A stretch of 32,000 bases of DNA, from contig JBHLKY010000026.1 of the NCBI GenBank assembly GCA_048886185.1, forward strand, positions 17,437 to 49,436, in the 5' to 3' direction. This document shows, one piece after another, positions 17,543 through 26,752 of the stretch (the stretch's first letter is position 1; every line of letters starts with the position of its first letter). The translations under genes and the position numbers were made by a program. This DNA is from Candidatus Hermodarchaeota archaeon (GTDB lineage Archaea > Asgardarchaeota > Heimdallarchaeia > Hodarchaeales > Hodarchaeaceae). The notes beneath the pieces are model-generated. The model ran no database searches, was not told the DNA's origin, and was given only the letters and a program-made list of their open reading frames with translations.

Positions 17543-17584
17543 ATAATAAATTTAGAAAAAGAGTTTAAACTGAACAAATGTAAA

Positions 17585-17604
17585 TTTTTTCTTTTTTGTT
17601 TTTT
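17585..17604 (+). terminator. T-rich tract, probable archaeal intrinsic terminator
   Basis: ttttttcttttttgtttttt lies about 40 nt after the protease stop, in the gap between convergent genes. Confidence 0.5.
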
Positions 17605-17871
17605 CCGACGAATCTCATTTCTTGGAGAGTAGTTAAATTCGTCCTTCTAATACCCTTTATTTCATCTCTTTCTTTAGCAATTTCCGCTAATGTCCTTTCT
17701 AGTGAAATCATGGTTAATGTTGTTTTCTGGAGAAGGATGAGGGAATTAAAAAAACTCTCAGATTTCTACTTTCACAAATGGTCTTGCTAGTTGTTTATTT
17801 GGTAATTTTTAGAATCTTGTCTTAAAACAGGATAGAGTTGGCGAGATAAAAATCTATGTTTAATGCTAAAA

Positions 17872-20160
17872 TTAAATTATAATTGAGGAATCATTTTTTA
17901 ATTCCTCTCTTAGCAAATCTTCTAAAATCATGATTGCTACATTCTTATCAAGCGGAAAATTATCATTTCCACATTTGGGTGATTGTACACAACTCGGACA
18001 GCCATCCTTGCATTCACAGTCCTTAATGAGATTTAAGACATTTCTCAATAATCTATCACATTTCTCGAAAAGCTGTTCTGAAATCCCAATTCCTCCTGGA
18101 AATCCATCATAAATAAACACCTTAGCTTTTCCATCTTCAGGATAACTGGGATAAGAAGTGCCCCCTATGTCCCATCGGTCACACATTGCATACATCGGGG
18201 ATAATGCTATAGTAGCATGCTCCATGGCGTGTATTCCCCCAGGAAAATCAAGCATATCGTCATGTAAACGATCGACAATGGTTTGAGGGATTTCAATCCA
18301 AAGTGCTTTGGTAATAAATTCCAAGGTGGGTAAATCCAGAGGTAATATTTCTAGAACTTCATCATATGTTTTTTTTCGATATGAATGATATTGTTCAGTG
18401 ACTTTAACTTCTCCAAAGAATAAGGGAAATCCATTATCTTTAATTATTAGTTTTTTTAAAACCGTGACCTCTGAAGTACTCATTGCCTCTGTATAGTAAT
18501 CTACTTCGATCGGGGAAGCATATGCCTTTCTTTTGGAGAGGTTTAAGACCTCTACCAAGTATGTTTCTCCTTGATGGATAAGTATTGCTCCTTCATGGGC
18601 TTCTCGATAAGCCTGTGGGACGCTCAAGGTTTCAAGGAGGATTTTATTAGCTAAAACTTCAATTGTATCTGTAAATGCAGTATTAAGGCTAACAATTGAT
18701 GCAGGTCTTTCAGAGGCGTTACTTGTCAATCCTGCTGGAACTATTTTGACTAATTGGTCTTGTCGTAATTCTTGGGCAATAATTTTTCCTTTATCTCCCC
18801 ATATATTCTGAATTTCTTTAAGAGATAGAGGGATTTCAGCAGCAGCACAAAGAATGTGACCTTTCAGAATGTAAGGATTTTGGAGATCAATAATTGCATT
18901 TTCTGGATTTTTCTCAAGAAAATAATCTGGATGTTTTCCAAGAAATTGTTGGAGTGGGTCTTCAAAAAGCACTAAAGTCGCTAAGGAGGGTCGTAGGGTT
19001 CTCCCAACTCGACCAATTTGTTGCCAAGTAGAAATGATAGTACCAGGGAAGCCTGATAAAATAACTGCATCTAGATTGCCTATATCTATTCCAACCTCTA
19101 GCGCATTCGTAGAAACAACAGCTTGAATCATACGATCACGAAGTTTATCCTCAATTTGACGTCGTTCTACGGGACGATAACCTGCACGGTAAGACATCAC
19201 TTGGGTATGATCTAATTCACTGTATTGAAGATCATTTTTAGTCCACAAGGAAATGAGTTCAGCCATCCGTCGTGATAATGTGAAACAGAGTGTTTGATAA
19301 TTAGCTTTAAGATGCTGAACTAATAAATCCCGAGTTTCTTGATGGGGGGAACGCTTCTTTAGCTTATATCGGTCGATAAAGGGAGGATTCCATAAAACAA
19401 GGTGTTTAGTACCATATTCTGCTCCATCATTTTTAATAATTTCAACAGGTTTTCCAATAAGTTTAGTTATAAATTCCTCTGGATTATTAATTGTTGCAGA
19501 AGAGAGTATATATTGAGGCATGGCTCCATAGTGATTTGTAATACGATTCAATCGTCGAAGTAATTGAGCAACATTAGAACCAAAGACACCTCGATATTGG
19601 TGTGCCTCATCTATAACTATAAATCTCAGATTTCTGAAAAATCGATCCCATTTGTGATGCCAATCAAGGTATTGATGTAACGCATATGGATTTGAAATTA
19701 TTACGTGAGCAAAGTTCCGAATCCCAGGTCTTTGTTCAGAGGGTGTGTCACCATCGTATATGTAGGGGCGTAATTTTCCATTCAAAACTTCATTCAGTTC
19801 CTCAAGTTTCTTTAATTGGTCATTGGCAAGAGCTTTCATCGGATAGAGGAACAATGCGGTCGTTGCTCGCTTTCGTGCGATCATGTTTGCCACGGAGAGG
19901 GAAAAAATTAGGGTTTTCCCCGAAGCAGTTGGCGTTGTTATAACTACGTTCTTTCCTTTTTGAATAGCATTCATAGCGGCAGCTTGATGGCAAAATAATC
20001 TCATCTGACTTTTTTCTAACCATTCGGTTAATTCTGGTTCTAAATCAAAATCTAAAGTTCCATATTCAGCCGATTTGGCTGGAATTGTGGCTTTGAATAC
20101 TATCTGTTGGCGATAGGAGGAATTCGATTCTATATCCCTAAGAAATTGTTCAACCTTCAT
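17872..20160 (-). CDS. DEAH-box helicase with DUF1998/Zn domain (MrfA/SftH/YprA/Hrq1 family)
   Basis: TPTASGKT, IDEAH, SAT, STNALEVGIDIG and QIGRVGR. C-terminal CDRWDIGG, FIYDGFPGGIG and CECKDGCPSCVQSPKCGNDN. Confidence 0.93.
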   Translation of the reverse strand: MKVEQFLRDIESNSSYRQQIVFKATIPAKSAEYGTLDFDLEPELTEWLEKSQMRLFCHQAAAMNAIQKGKNVVITTPTASGKTLIFSLSVANMIARKRATTALFLYPMKALANDQLKKLEELNEVLNGKLRPYIYDGDTPSEQRPGIRNFAHVIISNPYALHQYLDWHHKWDRFFRNLRFIVIDEAHQYRGVFGSNVAQLLRRLNRITNHYGAMPQYILSSATINNPEEFITKLIGKPVEIIKNDGAEYGTKHLVLWNPPFIDRYKLKKRSPHQETRDLLVQHLKANYQTLCFTLSRRMAELISLWTKNDLQYSELDHTQVMSYRAGYRPVERRQIEDKLRDRMIQAVVSTNALEVGIDIGNLDAVILSGFPGTIISTWQQIGRVGRTLRPSLATLVLFEDPLQQFLGKHPDYFLEKNPENAIIDLQNPYILKGHILCAAAEIPLSLKEIQNIWGDKGKIIAQELRQDQLVKIVPAGLTSNASERPASIVSLNTAFTDTIEVLANKILLETLSVPQAYREAHEGAILIHQGETYLVEVLNLSKRKAYASPIEVDYYTEAMSTSEVTVLKKLIIKDNGFPLFFGEVKVTEQYHSYRKKTYDEVLEILPLDLPTLEFITKALWIEIPQTIVDRLHDDMLDFPGGIHAMEHATIALSPMYAMCDRWDIGGTSYPSYPEDGKAKVFIYDGFPGGIGISEQLFEKCDRLLRNVLNLIKDCECKDGCPSCVQSPKCGNDNFPLDKNVAIMILEDLLREELKNDSSIII

Positions 20161-20166
20161 CCTAAC

Positions 20167-22536
20167 TCACAACGAGCTTGTCTCTTCTCCCTTAATAGAG
20201 CGACCATAGTTATCTCGAGTGATATTGATAGAGTGAGGGAATTGGTCTGCAATTTCTTGGAGGTGAGTAATTAATATAATCTTAAACTTGTTTGTTAGTT
20301 GAAAAAGCTTCTTTACAAACGCTTGCTGGGCTTCTAAGGTATCAAGTGATCCTAAATCCCCCTCATCAATGAAAAGGGTTTTCTTAGTTGCACTTGGGAT
20401 TCGCTCTCCTCGACCAAGTTCAGATATCTCCTCACTGATAGCTAAACGTAAAGCTGCGTTAATCTGAGTTCTCTCCCCTCCTGAAAATGTTGCTATATCG
20501 CGTACTCCTTCCGGAACCTTTACTAAAATCTCAAATCCCATCCCTTGTCTTCCTGATTCGACTTTCTGAAGTTGAAGATTAGAGAATCTGTTGTTAGTTA
20601 GTTCAGCTAGAATTAATGAGGCCCGTTTGCCTAATCTTGGCAACACTTTATTAATGGCATAAAATGGTGCCCCCTTAGTATGAAAGACTTCATTTTTTAG
20701 TTTTTCAAGGATCTCTTCCTCTTTGACTAGTGTTTTGACCTCTTCTTGTAATCCAATAATTTCAGGTTTAAGTTGCTTCAATTCCTTGATTTGAACGATT
20801 AAGTTTTTTTTCCGTTCTTCTAATACAGTTATTTCTTTATCGAGGGCTCGTTCTTCCTTCTCCTTAGTCTCTAAATTCTCTATTAAAGTATCAAATTCTT
20901 TCCTAAATGTTGGAAACCCTTTGAGGCTATTTCGAAGATCATCGATCTCTTTTATTACTTCTTTCACCTGATTTTCGATAGTAACCACCTTGGAGGTAGG
21001 ATCAACTTTATTTTCTGTCTTTTCTCTGATAATTTCGTATTTTTCTTTAATTTCTTGGTTGGATTCATGTTCATTCCGAAGAGTAGCTAATCTTTGCTTT
21101 TTCTCTGTTGAGAAATCAAGCTTTTTTAGCTTCTTTCTTTCTGTACACAGTTCTTCATCGTCAGATTTCTTTTCTTGTTTTAGTCGGCTTTCAAGTTCTT
21201 GAACTTCTTCCTCTAGCTCATTAATTCTTTGACTAATTTCTGAAAGGACAAAAGAGTCCTGATTGATATTTTCTTTCTCCTTTTGTAATTCTTTTAGATC
21301 CTCTCTAGCCTTAAGTTGTTCATTACGTAATTCTTGCAAGAGTTTTTCAGAAAGGTTCCATGATTGTTCTAATGAAATTCGTTGAATCCGCTCTAGCAGC
21401 CTCCCTTCTTGATTGAGAATTTTAAATGCAGTTTCATGATCAATAGATGTACTCAAATCTTTAGTTCTCTCTTGTTCTTTCTTGAGTCGCTTCAGTTTCT
21501 GTTTCAGATCCTTTTCTAATGTCTCTTCTTTTTTACGACTTTTCCTTTCCAAAAGGTTTAGATGGTTATTGATAAGCTCATAATCTTCTTCAAGACCCTC
21601 TAGTACTCTAATCTCTTCTTCTAAATTCTTTGCTTTCTTGATTTGGGTATCTAATTCTGACAATTGCTTTTGAAGTTTTTGATAGCTTTCCAACTCTTTA
21701 CTTGCTTCTATGAGATCCTCCTGTTTTGATCTTAAACGAATTTGGGCGTTTTCCTGAGTAGCTTGTATATTCAGATACTTTTCTAATATTGTCTGTTGTT
21801 CTTTTTCTGTTTTTCTTAATTTTTCAATTGCTTCTAACAGAGAATTATGTTTTTGCCTTTTATTAATTATTTGGGGTTTTACCTTAGTTAGTTCTTTTTC
21901 TAGTTGATCTATTTTGGAGATCTCTTCAATTTTAGCCTTTAATTCCCCTTCTTTTTGATTCTTCTTGTTTAGTACTTCCTGTAATCGTATCTGTACATCT
22001 CTAATCGCTTTTTCGAAAATATCTAATCGAAATAGATTTTGAAGAGTTCTCAGTCGTTCTGCTGATGATTTTGAACCAAGTGCCTTCATTTCATCCTGAC
22101 GAATAATGGTGGAATTAACAAATGATTGATAATTCATTCCAAGAATGGTTGATCGAATTTTCTCATTTAACTCTGGTATTTTTCCTGGAACACGGTCTCC
22201 ATCAATGAATAGCTCAAGATAACTTTTTCCTTGCTGATCACGTCCCCGCTTAATTCGCACCACATTCTCTCCTATTCGAAATTGACATAGAACTCTCCCA
22301 TTTTTGTTACAAATATCTTCAATTTTGACTGTTTGTAAATCTAATCGTGAACTTTTCCCAAAGAGAACAAATGTAAGAGCATCAAGAATTGTAGATTTAC
22401 CTGAACCCGTGGGCCCCGCAATAACGATATTAGGTGCTTTGAAATTAAAAGTAACAGGAGTATGGTAATTCATGAATCTATATAAGCCAATTTTTTGAAG
22501 GTCAAATCCTAGTCCTATCCGTGCCGTAGAATTCAT
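20167..22536 (-). CDS. rad50: Rad50/SbcC SMC-family ATPase lacking a CxxC zinc hook
   Basis: GPTGSGKS, Q-loop IRQ, long coiled coil, signature FSGGE, Walker B FIDEG and H-loop ITH. ATGA overlap with mre11. Confidence 0.9.
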   Translation of the reverse strand: MNSTARIGLGFDLQKIGLYRFMNYHTPVTFNFKAPNIVIAGPTGSGKSTILDALTFVLFGKSSRLDLQTVKIEDICNKNGRVLCQFRIGENVVRIKRGRDQQGKSYLELFIDGDRVPGKIPELNEKIRSTILGMNYQSFVNSTIIRQDEMKALGSKSSAERLRTLQNLFRLDIFEKAIRDVQIRLQEVLNKKNQKEGELKAKIEEISKIDQLEKELTKVKPQIINKRQKHNSLLEAIEKLRKTEKEQQTILEKYLNIQATQENAQIRLRSKQEDLIEASKELESYQKLQKQLSELDTQIKKAKNLEEEIRVLEGLEEDYELINNHLNLLERKSRKKEETLEKDLKQKLKRLKKEQERTKDLSTSIDHETAFKILNQEGRLLERIQRISLEQSWNLSEKLLQELRNEQLKAREDLKELQKEKENINQDSFVLSEISQRINELEEEVQELESRLKQEKKSDDEELCTERKKLKKLDFSTEKKQRLATLRNEHESNQEIKEKYEIIREKTENKVDPTSKVVTIENQVKEVIKEIDDLRNSLKGFPTFRKEFDTLIENLETKEKEERALDKEITVLEERKKNLIVQIKELKQLKPEIIGLQEEVKTLVKEEEILEKLKNEVFHTKGAPFYAINKVLPRLGKRASLILAELTNNRFSNLQLQKVESGRQGMGFEILVKVPEGVRDIATFSGGERTQINAALRLAISEEISELGRGERIPSATKKTLFIDEGDLGSLDTLEAQQAFVKKLFQLTNKFKIILITHLQEIADQFPHSINITRDNYGRSIKGEETSSL

Positions 22537-23756
22537 TTAAATTCCTCCACTTGGGATATAGCGGCATCTAGAATTTCTAAACCTTTATCACGAAGTTCTT
22601 TTAGATAAGGATAATCAGAGTATTGTTCAGATACAAATTCAGAAAATAAAACTAGAGGATCTAAAATTAAATCTGGTAATACGATTTCTTTGATTGCTTC
22701 TGAGGTGTGCCAATTAATTTCATAATGAAAAGCTTTTTTATCTAGAACCTGGTGGATTCGGGGAAGAATAATGCGTTTTTGAAGGAAGGATGGGATTTCA
22801 ATTTCAATACGGACAATTGCTTGTTCAATGTTTTGAGGTAAACGCTTCTGAATGAAATCAGTGGGATTTTGAGTCTCTTTTGGGACTTCAATATATTCCC
22901 TGATTAATGTACGAGGATTATTTGAAAAAAAATCTATTTTTTTTGTCTTAGTATCATATACATAAAAACCCTTGTCTTCTTTTACTTCTCCAAAATCTAC
23001 TCGTTCAAGAGATCCTGGAACTAAGAGTTTTCCTCGGATTTGAGCAGTATGAATATGCCCAAAAACGGCCAAATCAACCTGTTCTAGTGGTAACATGTCC
23101 TCCTTAAATTTAAATTCATGTGGTAATTGGTCTGGGTAGGGAATAATACCAATTTTAGATCCTTCGACATAAAAATGACCCACAATGAACTTAACCTTTG
23201 TATCTAGTTGGTCTACTTCATGTTTAATCCAATCACGAAATAGCTGTTGGCTACGAATCATATATTGATTTCTATCAATTTCTTCTCCTACCTGCTCCTC
23301 TGCATACACTACAGCTTGAGTTGCTGTCATATAGGGAAGAAGAACAAATCCAATTTCCTCACCTGTGTTGCGGGCTTTAACCTTTTGGGTTTGAGGCCAT
23401 CGGACAGCATAACTACTTGGAATAATTTCAACTTCACCTATAGGAGATCCTTTCTCAATGATTTGCGGTGAGTCATGATTACCTCCTACTAGTACTATCG
23501 GAATTTTGTGAGCAAGTAGGGGTTGCCAGATTCTTTCCCTAACTTTCTGCAAAAGTGTTTGTCCAATAGTAACGCGATCATAGAGATCTCCACAGATCAC
23601 AAAAATATCGATTTGTTCATCTATCGCATATTTAACAACACGAGCTAATGCCTCAACGAAATCCATTGTACGATCGCTTATACCAGTTCGAAGGTTAACA
23701 CGATATGAATAGCGAATACCAATATGAACATCAGAAACGAATAGAATTTTCGCCAT
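22533..23756 (-). CDS. mre11: Mre11/SbcD DNA repair nuclease
   Basis: Phosphoesterase motifs SDVHIG, GDLYD, GNHD, GHF, GHIH and PGSLER. Confidence 0.93.
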   Translation of the reverse strand: MAKILFVSDVHIGIRYSYRVNLRTGISDRTMDFVEALARVVKYAIDEQIDIFVICGDLYDRVTIGQTLLQKVRERIWQPLLAHKIPIVLVGGNHDSPQIIEKGSPIGEVEIIPSSYAVRWPQTQKVKARNTGEEIGFVLLPYMTATQAVVYAEEQVGEEIDRNQYMIRSQQLFRDWIKHEVDQLDTKVKFIVGHFYVEGSKIGIIPYPDQLPHEFKFKEDMLPLEQVDLAVFGHIHTAQIRGKLLVPGSLERVDFGEVKEDKGFYVYDTKTKKIDFFSNNPRTLIREYIEVPKETQNPTDFIQKRLPQNIEQAIVRIEIEIPSFLQKRIILPRIHQVLDKKAFHYEINWHTSEAIKEIVLPDLILDPLVLFSEFVSEQYSDYPYLKELRDKGLEILDAAISQVEEFK

Positions 23757-23770
23757 CTTGGATCAGTGTG

Positions 23771-25366
23771 CTATTTTGGTTTGAAAAGATCACTTTTTTC
23801 GTCATCAGACAATTCTTGAAACCTCTGTTTTAATCGGGTTCCCACATGAGACACTTTCCATTTAGCAGTCATAGTCTGATCAGTGTATTTTAAGACGTCC
23901 ATAGCCGTGGGTGCTTTAATAGCATCCCCAAACATCAAAACTGTTCTTGGTGGCATTGCTTTAACAATTGCACGCCATGCTGCAGGATCTACTGGCCCTG
24001 AAAGTGCTCCTGTAATATCTTTTGGATCATTTAGTGAAAGAATGAATCGATTTGCTAATTGAGACAATATTTCTGGATCGATTCTTGAGGGACGTTGATC
24101 TACCATTGCTAATACAAGTTTGAATTTTCTCATTTCTCGTGCTAGCCGATCAAAAATCGTTCCTCGTGCAATTGCTGGATCTAAGAATTTATGTGCTTCT
24201 TCGAGTAATACAACCAGGTGGGGGTATTCTGTCATATCAACCATTTCACTATACGCCTGATATAGTCGTCTGGATAGGATATTTGCCACAAACAAATATG
24301 CAAAAAAATCTGCTCCATATTTCCCGAAATCAATGACTATAGATTGACCCGATTTGAGGTAGGTTAAAACTTTATTCAAGGTTCCTTTTCCAGGTGGAAC
24401 AATAAATTCTAGGCGTTCCAAGCGAGAAATTCGTCTACTTAACGCGCTTAAAGTCCCACGCGTTGCTTGGAAGGGATTGGGATCAGCAAGAGCTGCATGT
24501 GAAATCGCTTCAACTAGTGTTTGACCAGGTCTATTTCGATTTATCTCATAAATTGCGTCTATCATTGCAGGACTTAGATCTTGGAATGCTACGACAATAT
24601 CCTGGGGTGTAATCTCATCTTCTCCAATGAGTAACACTTCATCAAGATCCTTACTTGTTTTTGGATCTAATCCTAACAGAGTAATTTTATCTTCAAAAAA
24701 GAATTTGAGACCTGCTGATTGATCAGCTCTACTTCTCCAACCATATTCTGATTGCATATCAAAAACTAAAACTTGGGCAACTTCAAGTTGAATGATATTT
24801 CCCAATATAATTTTATTAAGAAAAGTTTTTCCTGAATGTGTTCTACCAAAAATTCCAAAAGGAACCTGTACCAGTTCTTTAAAATCGATAGGAATTTCAA
24901 ATCCTTCCACACCCCGTAAAGTTCCCACTGTCTGTGAAAATTCGGGAAGATCAGTTTGGTATACTCTATTCACATCTACCTCATTAGCGAAACGGCCAGT
25001 TGAAAAATAAGGAGGTAGTGTTTCAAATGAATAAGTCCTACTTGTTTCTTTATCAATCATCTGGACACATTGCAGTTCTGCAGTACTATAAAACGTTCGT
25101 CCCCGTGCTGTTTCAATAGTAGTCATTGGTATTGTACTTCGCAATTTCTCGGCATTTGCCAACATTGTGACGGCATTACTTGTAGGGAATGAGATATCAG
25201 CTATAATACAAAAAAAATCATACCTATTGCCTTCGACCACTGCTGGATATCCTATTCTGACTTCTTCACTATCAGTTTTCAGTTTCAAATGAATAGCGGA
25301 ACTAACAGCACCTGAGATTACTTCTCCAAGAATTTTATCTTTGTTTTCCAATCTATAACTCTCCAT
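23771..25366 (-). CDS. herA: HerA bipolar helicase/ATPase
   Basis: N-terminal HAS-barrel-like segment, Walker A GRTHSGKT, FDMQSEY, LLEEAHKF, REMRKF and DQRP. Confidence 0.92.
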   Translation of the reverse strand: MESYRLENKDKILGEVISGAVSSAIHLKLKTDSEEVRIGYPAVVEGNRYDFFCIIADISFPTSNAVTMLANAEKLRSTIPMTTIETARGRTFYSTAELQCVQMIDKETSRTYSFETLPPYFSTGRFANEVDVNRVYQTDLPEFSQTVGTLRGVEGFEIPIDFKELVQVPFGIFGRTHSGKTFLNKIILGNIIQLEVAQVLVFDMQSEYGWRSRADQSAGLKFFFEDKITLLGLDPKTSKDLDEVLLIGEDEITPQDIVVAFQDLSPAMIDAIYEINRNRPGQTLVEAISHAALADPNPFQATRGTLSALSRRISRLERLEFIVPPGKGTLNKVLTYLKSGQSIVIDFGKYGADFFAYLFVANILSRRLYQAYSEMVDMTEYPHLVVLLEEAHKFLDPAIARGTIFDRLAREMRKFKLVLAMVDQRPSRIDPEILSQLANRFILSLNDPKDITGALSGPVDPAAWRAIVKAMPPRTVLMFGDAIKAPTAMDVLKYTDQTMTAKWKVSHVGTRLKQRFQELSDDEKSDLFKPK

Positions 25367-25369
25367 ATT

Positions 25370-26410
25370 CTAGCGTGTAATGTCATCTAAGTGACGATGG
25401 AAAGGATCTCTTTCCATTTTTTCATTGATTAAAAGATATTGTAGTAATTCTTCCTCAAATCCGAGAATAGTTGCTGCTTCTATTAATTCATGATTGTACA
25501 TATCTGGAACTCGTCGTAATAAGGCTGCAATATTATGAGCATCAACCAGTGGGAATGGGTAACCTGGGCAACTGTCAACCTTAGAATAATAAGCAAGATG
25601 AGAAAGGATTGTTTTAATTGGCCGATTTTCATGAAGTACAGCATCTACTCGGAAAGTTTTTATTGGATGAGGGTGTAATTTTGCTAGAAAAGTTTTTCCT
25701 AGTGGAGGAAAAACTTGTTTTCCAACTGGAACCTCTTTAATTTCAGTATATAACATACGGGGATCATTTTTAGTTAATTGTTTAACCAAAGCTTCATCAG
25801 TAAGGTTCGAATTCAATCGTTTTGTTGTATTACGTTTTGATACTCCAATTAAGGTATTATTATTTTCAGCACAAACCTCTCTTAAGTTCTTGGCAGCATC
25901 CTCAATTTGTTTTATTTGGACATATGTTAATGCTCCATCCATAACAATAATTGAATCCGAATATTTTTTCGCCCAATCTTCTGCTAATTTATATTCTTCA
26001 AGTTCTCTTAATTGAGAGAGTATTCCTTGAGCAGTTGGACGTCTACCTAAAACTTTTTTTATTTCCTGATGAAAAGCTTTCACTTCTTGGTCATAATTAA
26101 GTATATCTAGATTATTCGGTGCAATTAAGGCTGGAACGTCTTTATGGATTTGATCAACAAGTCTGAGAGTTTTTGACAGAGCTTGATATTCATAAACAAC
26201 TACTACAGCTCTAATGATTGCTATTCTTGCGTTAACATCAGGATTATACCAAATCCAGCGGTTCGAGCCATCGACAGCAAGCATTTTTGGTGGAATGTCT
26301 TGATATGTAAATTCATGGAATGAAAAAGAGGGATTACTTTCTGCGTCTTTTATTGCTTGACTTTGCGTATTCTGGATTTGCTTTAAGAATTGTTGAAACA
26401 GTTCTTTCAC
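25370..26410 (-). CDS. nurA: NurA 5'-3' nuclease
   Basis: GTG start after an AGGAG SD-like motif. Motifs AVDGS, MDGAL, GVSKR and GYPFPLVDAH; stop lies 3 bp before herA. Confidence 0.9.
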   Translation of the reverse strand: MKELFQQFLKQIQNTQSQAIKDAESNPSFSFHEFTYQDIPPKMLAVDGSNRWIWYNPDVNARIAIIRAVVVVYEYQALSKTLRLVDQIHKDVPALIAPNNLDILNYDQEVKAFHQEIKKVLGRRPTAQGILSQLRELEEYKLAEDWAKKYSDSIIVMDGALTYVQIKQIEDAAKNLREVCAENNNTLIGVSKRNTTKRLNSNLTDEALVKQLTKNDPRMLYTEIKEVPVGKQVFPPLGKTFLAKLHPHPIKTFRVDAVLHENRPIKTILSHLAYYSKVDSCPGYPFPLVDAHNIAALLRRVPDMYNHELIEAATILGFEEELLQYLLINEKMERDPFHRHLDDITR

Positions 26411-26752
26411 TAATAATAACTCCTAAACTATCTTAACCCCTGGCTCAAATAAAAAACTATTAGGATGATTCGCTTTTAAGCATATTGAATAATTAACCCT
26501 TTTATTCATTGACATCGCAAGAATCAAAGTTATTCTTTTCTGGTTTTCCGAATGATTAATTTAGAGGATTTTAAAATATATATAATATTTAGGAAGATAA
26601 AGTGATGATACAAACTGGTTAATTCAATATTGTACAATTATTAATGATGATTAGGAGGGTCATTTCACTTTTTAAGAAAGATTATTAATCTTTCAAACGA
26701 ATTTATACCAATAATTTTTATTATTTTATTATGAAGTTCCGAGTGATTTTCG

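Follow-up and report, generated by a model that had tools for sequence, protein, structure and literature searches.

Helicases of the MrfA/Hrq1/RecQ4 type are conserved from bacteria to humans, but how they work in the repair of crosslinks and breaks, and with which partners, is still poorly understood. A stretch of 32,000 nucleotides from a Hodarchaeales archaeon (contig JBHLKY010000026.1 of assembly GCA_048886185.1), referred to here as the window, raises the question of whether such a helicase can be a working part of a Mre11-Rad50 module. In this stretch, the gene of an MrfA-type helicase directly follows the genes of NurA, HerA, Mre11, and Rad50. The best explanation is that the five-gene operon probably constitutes a DNA-repair unit, which joins a divergent Mre11-Rad50 module devoid of a zinc hook with a recruited MrfA-type helicase that would unwind DNA for one of the module's nucleases.

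The open reading frame (ORF) listing of positions 17872-26410 contains exactly five co-oriented ORFs on the minus strand, in the order nurA-herA-mre11-rad50-helicase. The intergenic distances of 3, 14, -4 (ATGA overlap), and 6 bp, given from nurA to the helicase gene, were reproduced as reported in a first-pass annotation made from the sequence alone:

25370-26410, minus strand: nurA, NurA-family nuclease, 346 amino acids, GTG start, divergent member of its family
23771-25366, minus strand: herA, HerA-family hexameric ATPase/translocase, 531 amino acids
22533-23756, minus strand: mre11, Mre11/SbcD-type phosphoesterase nuclease, 407 amino acids, stop codon overlapping the rad50 start (ATGA)
20167-22536, minus strand: rad50, Rad50/SbcC-type ABC ATPase, 789 amino acids, long coiled coil, without zinc hook
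17872-20160, minus strand: helicase, MrfA/YprA (SftH/Hrq1-family) superfamily 2 (SF2) helicase, 762 amino acids

This spacing leaves no room for promoters between the five genes. Since the flanking genes are encoded on the opposite strand, a subtilase gene being convergent and an rdhA-like gene divergent, the five-gene block forms a self-contained unit.

Conservation of the locus was surveyed in 22 species-level genomes of one GTDB genus of the Hodarchaeales, the only genus sampled for its family. The window genome (G000) is a metagenome-assembled genome (MAG) of 4.84 Mb in 75 contigs, 96% complete and with approximately 5% contamination. A Rad50-like gene and the helicase gene are both present in 19 of the 22 genomes, and in every one of these carriers the two genes share a contig and a strand, with match ends separated by 5-44 bp. 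Identities range from 45 to 74% for Rad50 and from 66 to 85% for the helicase. The remaining three genomes (71-87% complete) have neither gene. The full order was found in four further genomes examined whole (G003, G008, G010, and G001), among them a closed single-contig genome (G010) and, as the most divergent of the four, G001. All four also keep the flanks, with the subtilase gene on one side and the rdhA-like gene together with a 2-hydroxyacid dehydrogenase gene on the other; gene order and flanks persist down to about 50% Rad50 identity. Among the five proteins, HerA shows the strongest conservation, with 83-91% in close relatives, and independent assemblies from several studies share the arrangement. 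The tightly packed unit recognized in the first pass is hence a property of the genus and not of a single genome, and no such adjacency was found outside the genus. The locus is a stable, vertically inherited chromosomal unit. It is not a chance arrangement and, because the same flanks are present throughout the genus, not a genomic island.

The hook-less Mre11-Rad50 module

In the first-pass annotation, herA, nurA, mre11, and rad50 were equated with the archaeal end-resection module. With respect to protein families and catalytic motifs this holds. NurA matches Pfam PF09376 (1.9e-12) over positions 2-253 of the 254 profile positions, and its residues D47, E116, D158, and H292 are invariant in eight orthologs, distant ones included. 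HerA is recognized by the DUF87/HerA central domain (PF01935, 9.7e-16) and has invariant Walker A (G174..G179 K180) and Walker B (EEAH, E389-H392) motifs. Mre11 matches the Pfam family Metallophos (2.2e-16), its best solved relatives are the Thermotoga and Pyrococcus Mre11 proteins, and the catalytic residues D9, H11, D57, N93, H94, H194, H234, and H236 (motifs I-V) are invariant in eight orthologs. Rad50 matches AAA_23, AAA_29, and SMC_N, with Rad50 of Methanocaldococcus jannaschii as the best solved relative (7.6e-23); the invariant elements of its ATPase head are Walker A (G41-K47), Q147 of the Q-loop, the signature SGGE (S685-E688), Walker B (D724/E725), and H758 of the H-switch. The equation fails where canonical status is concerned. 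NCBIfam equivalog scores amount to about 40 bits for Mre11 (cut-offs 500-600), 54-60 for HerA (800-970), 18.7 for NurA (400), and 112.6 for Rad50 with its best match PRK03918 (700). Because all of them score far below these cut-offs, the four genes are, judged by sequence, divergent family members and not the canonical archaeal set.

The locus resembles the HerA-Mre11-Rad50-NurA operon of Sulfolobus, Pyrococcus, and Thermococcus (PMC13748450) in that the same four families are united in one operon, with intact motifs and translationally coupled mre11 and rad50 genes. It deviates from that operon by the order nurA-herA-mre11-rad50, the sub-cut-off scores, a short Rad50 of 789 amino acids without CxxC motif, the appended fifth gene for an SF2 MrfA-type helicase, and the presence of another HerA-NurA pair, closer to the canonical form, at a separate place in the genome. 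There is also a likeness to bacterial SbcCD: the NCBIfam subfamily model that gives the window Mre11 its highest score is sbcD (76.5 bits at a cut-off of 77.65 bits; Mre11 models reach 37-40 bits), and Rad50 matches sbcC at 91 bits. Bacterial SbcCD loci are not known to have an associated NurA-HerA pair.

A CxxC zinc hook was found nowhere in the window Rad50 (P0001) or in 24 relatives, and a mid-molecule CxxC is likewise missing from the approximately 30 nearest 50%-cluster representatives of the window protein. In contrast, it is present in 67 of the next 77 Rad50/SbcC-type hits, which measure about 850 amino acids. At the place where the hook would be, the window Rad50 contains a strongly conserved apex block (residues ~355-435, positions ~21232-21474) with the invariant residues A370, L374, G378, L380, R386, I387, E390, W393, I424, and F429. 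An AlphaFold2 model (mean predicted local distance difference test score 80.2) consists of the head and helices spanning residues 172-617, with the apex block predicted as a pair of short helices where the coiled coil turns back on itself at its tip. The window Rad50 is a member of a distinct family of approximately 780-830 amino acids that has a conserved helical apex instead of a zinc hook.

In other lineages, too, the hook-less Rad50 is encoded together with a Mre11, a NurA, and a HerA of its own in a unit of four genes. The order is Mre11-Rad50-NurA-HerA in G063 (L049/L050) and at L055, where housekeeping genes surround the module in both cases; a RadA gene near the module in L049/L050 and a weak Rad51-family match near the module in L055 are a further likeness to the archaeal operon. 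Two other contigs (L051/L052) carry the module without the helicase. In one of them, a Joint Genome Institute (JGI) metagenome contig, Mre11-Rad50-NurA-HerA is located between genes for an OLD-family nuclease, a type IIG restriction-modification enzyme, GmrSD, and a DUF4011 helicase; in the other, from another Hodarchaeales lineage, NurA-HerA-Mre11-Rad50 directly follows a type IIG restriction-modification gene. Unlike that of the window locus, the surroundings of L051 and L052 look like defense islands. In three further Asgard lineages, Mre11 and Rad50 are fused in one polypeptide of about 1190-1207 amino acids, with HerA ahead:

L062:1285-4854: Mre11-Rad50 fusion
L063:8557-12132, minus strand: Mre11-Rad50 fusion
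L054:1625-5248: Mre11-Rad50 fusion

NurA precedes HerA at L063 (G189), the only one of these contigs that reaches far enough upstream. Altogether, the distribution of the hook-less family is patchy, with carriers in 4 of 70 Asgard genera (301-genome sample).

Other Heimdallarchaeia encode a hooked Rad50 of about 935-950 amino acids beside Mre11, in G026 in the order herA-mre11-rad50, and the hooked proteins of G018, G026, and G022 contain a mid-molecule CxxC. The first pass had asked for a second, hooked rad50/mre11 locus in the window genome; protein, family, and tblastn searches of this genome did not find one. The window Mre11-Rad50 was also considered as an accessory to a hooked pair elsewhere in the genome, a candidate that was rejected, as the searches turned up only a lone Mre11-like gene. 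Hooked Rad50 was not found either in G010 (closed), G063, G243, G189, and G254, all of them carriers of the hook-less form. All in all, the window organism has no Mre11-Rad50 pair other than the hook-less one, and for most genomes with the hook-less module no other Mre11-Rad50 pair was found. This speaks for a role in housekeeping repair rather than a merely accessory function. Hook-less Rad50 proteins with an alternative apex and Mre11-Rad50 fusions, in several Asgard lineages for which no hooked Rad50 was found, bear on the question of how essential the zinc hook is.

In total, G000 contains two HerA-NurA pairs and one Rad50 found. The second, better-scoring HerA-NurA pair (L029:8378-10623 on contig C3; HerA 118 bits vs Pfam DUF87) adjoins the gene of ribosomal protein S3Ae (rpS3Ae) and has neither Mre11 nor Rad50 next to it. 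Contig C13 of G018, which represents a species of the genus, carries, besides the five-gene operon of that genome, a hooked Rad50 of 949 amino acids (CxxC at 487) together with Mre11 (L046:5738-11381); this pair is preceded by a gene for an AAA+ (Cdc48-like) ATPase, not by herA.

The MrfA-type helicase and its relatives

The assignment of the fifth gene to the MrfA/SftH/Hrq1 family, made in the first pass, was borne out by structure and profile comparisons. The protein aligns with the crystal structure of Bacillus subtilis MrfA (6znp) at 2.2e-138 over helicase residues 48-726 and with TIGR03817 over 3-740 of 742 positions, at 716.4 bits, which is below the trusted cut-off of 874.1. A DEAD/DEAH core, a winged helix, and a C-terminal Cys-rich MZB domain are combined in one polypeptide (Pfam DEAD 7.5e-34, Helicase_C, WHD_HRQ1, and MZB, also known as DUF1998, 2.3e-24). 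The same DEAD-HelC-WH-MZB architecture is found in the B. subtilis mitomycin C pair MrfAB (YprA/YprB) and in mycobacterial SftH. Residues K82, D184/E185, motif VI, and C715/C717/C721/C724/C730 are invariant across orthologs. The operon helicase is not fused to a nuclease; the polypeptide ends just after the MZB domain. A survey of the YprA family divides it into a repair branch, whose members are 'YprA only' or linked to MrfB, and a defense branch (DISARM, Dpd, Druantia, ARMADA, and others) with characteristic nucleases and partner genes, and describes a large 'YprA only' class without conserved context (PMC12458937; Bell et al., 2025). The operon helicase fits the repair branch.

Close archaeal relatives of the helicase, encoded in G035, beside P0417, and on haloarchaeal plasmids, directly follow a gene for an RNase H-fold MrfB-like protein. 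Here, by contrast, the helicase follows rad50 in an operon with the nucleases Mre11 and NurA, and no MrfB/YprB was found, in agreement with the first-pass annotation: within the window genome, PF13482 matches only two long ORFs (848 and 868 amino acids), weakly, and tblastn with the MrfB-like protein of G035 yielded no match. The long-lasting linkage of the helicase to Mre11-Rad50 and NurA-HerA without a detectable MrfB can be regarded as a natural experiment, one in which candidate nucleases for the partnership are singled out.

Helicase orthologs with 40-55% identity are common in Asgard archaea outside the genus (89 of the 301 genomes at a threshold of 1e-150), and no ortholog examined there adjoins Mre11-Rad50 or NurA-HerA. 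Stand-alone helicases among unrelated housekeeping genes are encoded in G022, G063, G243, G189, G254, and on the contigs of P0377 and P0384; the G023 copy is situated at a contig start, where only the downstream side is readable. The MrfB-adjacent group around P0417 belongs to the 50-55% identity range, and its best Asgard matches are only 57-62% identical. In the tree, the operon-linked helicases form one clade (support 98/100), with the stand-alone helicases as its sister and the MrfB-adjacent group as the next branch in a quick tree. The simplest reading is that the helicase gene was placed behind rad50 once, presumably in the ancestor of the genus. The extra domains encountered among 66 long helicase relatives are RNase_T, HNH, DnaJ, and a eukaryotic CDT1-like region; Rosetta-stone fusions to Mre11, Rad50, HerA, or NurA do not occur among them (0 of 66).

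G000 encodes a second, distant MZB/DUF1998 helicase (L031:7340-10102, contig C2) of 920 amino acids with an N-terminal tetratricopeptide repeat match. It is 30% identical to the operon helicase, and each of the 21 other genus genomes has it as well; the neighbors in G000 are a 411-amino-acid protein without Pfam match and an M28 peptidase/FtsX fusion. The haloarchaeal plasmids L071 (Natronosalvus, NZ_CP101159.1), L072, and L073 have in common a gene block for a tyrosyl-DNA phosphodiesterase, a DEAD helicase, an MrfB-like protein, and an MrfA-like helicase, in all three cases near integrase and ParA genes. The cassette behind the MrfA-like helicase varies: Natronosalvus has a distant Mre11-like exonuclease and a 1157-amino-acid SMC ATPase, Salinirubellus a RecB-nuclease/helicase fusion, and Natrarchaeobaculum a hypothetical protein with a 984-amino-acid AAA ATPase. 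MrfAB and SbcCD-like pairs are here found together on mobile DNA, in an association that is loose and independent.

Repair unit, co-regulated neighbor, or defense module

Archaeal Mre11-Rad50 together with HerA-NurA resects double-strand breaks (PMC13748450). In the proposed repair unit, Mre11-Rad50 would recognize, nick, or clip broken, blocked, or crosslinked DNA, and HerA-NurA would drive resection of the 5'-strand. The MrfA-type 3'-5' helicase, working from the 3' side, would open duplex that is blocked or carries a lesion and would pass the unwound strand to a nuclease of the module; one operon would then cover end resection as well as excision of adducts and crosslinks. Helicase-nuclease cooperation is documented for relatives. 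MrfA works with MrfB in mitomycin C repair (PMC7797055), where MrfB acts as a 3'-5' exonuclease and interacts with MrfA (PMC11194089), Hrq1 stimulates the Pso2 nuclease (bioRxiv 10.1101/773267), and both resection and the nuclease activity of MRE11 are enhanced by RECQL4 (PMC7947261, reviewing Lu et al.). Mre11 with its 3'-5' exonuclease activity would be the most obvious stand-in for MrfB, and NurA the alternative; this specific substitution of Mre11 for MrfB is put forward with less confidence than the repair unit as such. Cooperation between the helicase and the module, and any physical contact between them, are inferred. A stricter version, in which the five proteins are one physical machine, the Hrq1/RecQ4-family helicase docks on a hook-less Mre11-Rad50 dimerized via its zinc-free apex, and Mre11 or NurA replaces MrfB, is regarded as rather unlikely. 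If true, it would provide a compact prokaryotic model for the cooperation of RecQ4-type helicases with Mre11-Rad50 in resection and crosslink repair. A complex prediction for full-length Mre11 and helicase residues 245-762, with alignments as input, gave a score of 0.00; run without controls, it speaks neither for nor against binding.

Several observations weigh against the proposed repair unit. The helicase is linked in one genus only, and relatives with the hook-less module keep it elsewhere in the genome; the module evidently works without a linked helicase, which may thus be a mere co-regulated passenger. Relatives of the four-gene module are sometimes surrounded by restriction and defense genes. 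Moreover, the hook-less pair is not always without company: G018 has both a hooked and a hook-less Rad50, and G008 and G002 have an extra hooked Rad50-like protein of 839 amino acids. G000 itself contains a lone Mre11-like phosphoesterase of 416 amino acids without Rad50 partner (L060:4784-6034, contig C5), which reaches about 66 bits on archaeal Mre11 models, above the operon Mre11; a gene for a family-B DNA polymerase (PolB) is located at a distance of about 700 bp.

The passenger view amounts to co-regulation only, i.e. the helicase shares a DNA-damage regulon with rad50 and acts on its own substrates without any hand-off. It agrees with the solitary position of most orthologs in other Asgard lineages, with the context-free 'YprA only' class (PMC12458937), with the 0 of 66 long relatives fused to domains of the module, and with the build of the genus proteins, which have no extra domain or tail for docking and are as long as relatives without linkage. 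However, a junction of 6 bp and an unbroken adjacency kept at 45-50% Rad50 identity are stronger than what loose regulon membership usually gives, and the usual nuclease partner MrfB was not found in the window genome. Co-regulation alone is a doubtful explanation, if one to be taken seriously. Chance adjacency, or an artefact of a single MAG assembly, could be suspected from the 75 contigs and the approximately 5% contamination of the source genome; recurrence of the linkage in 19 of 22 genomes, a closed one included, and in independent assemblies practically refutes it, and its probability is close to nil.

A DNA-end-sensing or foreign-DNA-degrading module akin to the YprA-family systems (DISARM, Druantia, Dpd, ARMADA), to Lamassu, or to HerA-based systems, as raised in the first pass, is improbable. 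The locus gives partial PADLOC matches to DruE (1e-41), LmuB (2e-16), anti-phage HerA models, mad3, and mad8, but these span generic ATPase and helicase cores only. The patchy occurrence of the hook-less family and the neighborhoods of its JGI and Hodarchaeales relatives would suit such a module; at the window locus, however, the constant flanks leave no island, and it is this locus that carries the only Rad50 found in the genome. While a helicase core with DUF1998/MZB is common to the locus and to DISARM DrmA/B, Druantia DruE, Dpd DpdJ/F, and ARMADA (PMC12458937), the window helicase is nearest to B. subtilis MrfA from end to end and has neither the C-terminal nucleases nor the split architecture of the defense clades. 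A fused or downstream phospholipase D (PLD) or Vsr nuclease, a methyltransferase, a BrxHII-like helicase, and 7-deazaguanine (dpd) genes are missing here, and Pfam searches of the neighboring genes revealed no methyltransferase, PLD nuclease, or Dru/Drm/Dpd partner. Because the helicase falls in the repair branch, a role in repair or resection is more likely than one in defense.

The first-pass annotation had left open whether the arrangement was known. No description of the operon, or of an MrfA/DUF1998 helicase joined to archaeal Mre11-Rad50, was found in the literature searched, and the words Mre11, Rad50, SbcC, HerA, and NurA are all absent from the YprA-family survey (PMC12458937). The five-gene arrangement is apparently undescribed, although both of its modules are of known kinds.

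Hodarchaeales have been proposed as the archaeal order closest to eukaryotes, and the first pass had seen in the locus a possible foreshadowing of the partnership between RECQL4 and the eukaryotic Mre11-Rad50 complex MRN. The two share a helicase family (WHD_HRQ1 and MZB) and, together with Hrq1-Pso2, the theme of a helicase that works with Mre11-Rad50 or a repair nuclease. The window helicase is 32-38% identical over its whole length to Hrq1-type proteins of eukaryotes (fungi, plants, Corallochytrium, Vitrella), several of which have a CDT1-like region. The eukaryotic partnership, however, runs through N-terminal regions that the window helicase does not have. The quick tree included bacterial (Nocardia, Brevibacillus, and a Tsukamurella row that is an over-extended ORF with a very long branch), haloarchaeal, Asgard, and eukaryotic sequences. 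Seven of the eight eukaryotic Hrq1-type sequences fall in a clade of their own and the archaeal ones in another, with a base that joins all three groups without resolution; no eukaryotic sequence is sister to the clade of operon helicases. As a derived trait of one genus, the linkage cannot be the ancestral state that foreshadows RECQL4-MRN, and the idea was abandoned. The resemblance is best described as a functional analogy, not as demonstrated ancestry. With a linkage limited to one genus and a proposed function, the locus is a lead and not a finding about the origin of eukaryotes.

Flanks and transcription of the operon

The five genes are bordered by two intergenic regions:

26411-26752, minus strand: upstream intergenic region between nurA and the divergent rdhA-like gene, candidate promoter
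17543-17871, minus strand: intergenic region on the downstream side, towards the convergent subtilase gene, T-rich tracts, putative transcript end

A Shine-Dalgarno-like AGGAG is located about 10 nucleotides ahead of the GTG start of nurA, and the position of this start is kept in relatives. Alignment of the last ~190 nucleotides upstream of nurA with four relatives from the genus revealed conserved blocks in four closer genomes along with a conserved Shine-Dalgarno sequence; the last ~100 nucleotides before nurA are conserved in the four closer relatives. The tight spacing and this conserved upstream block suggest that the five genes are co-transcribed as a single unit. The five sequencing runs listed for the locus are DNA metagenomes of sediment or estuary origin, four of which are probably the source samples, and no RNA run is among them. 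A scan for sigma-70 promoters and intrinsic terminators predicted sites no more numerous than in shuffled sequence, archaeal promoters being outside the model of the scan. In G003 (L033:4246-6099), the region between the rdhA-like gene and nurA measures about 1.85 kb, whereas the window, G008, and G010 have approximately 340-370 bp there; the greater length in G003 suggests an insertion upstream of the operon.

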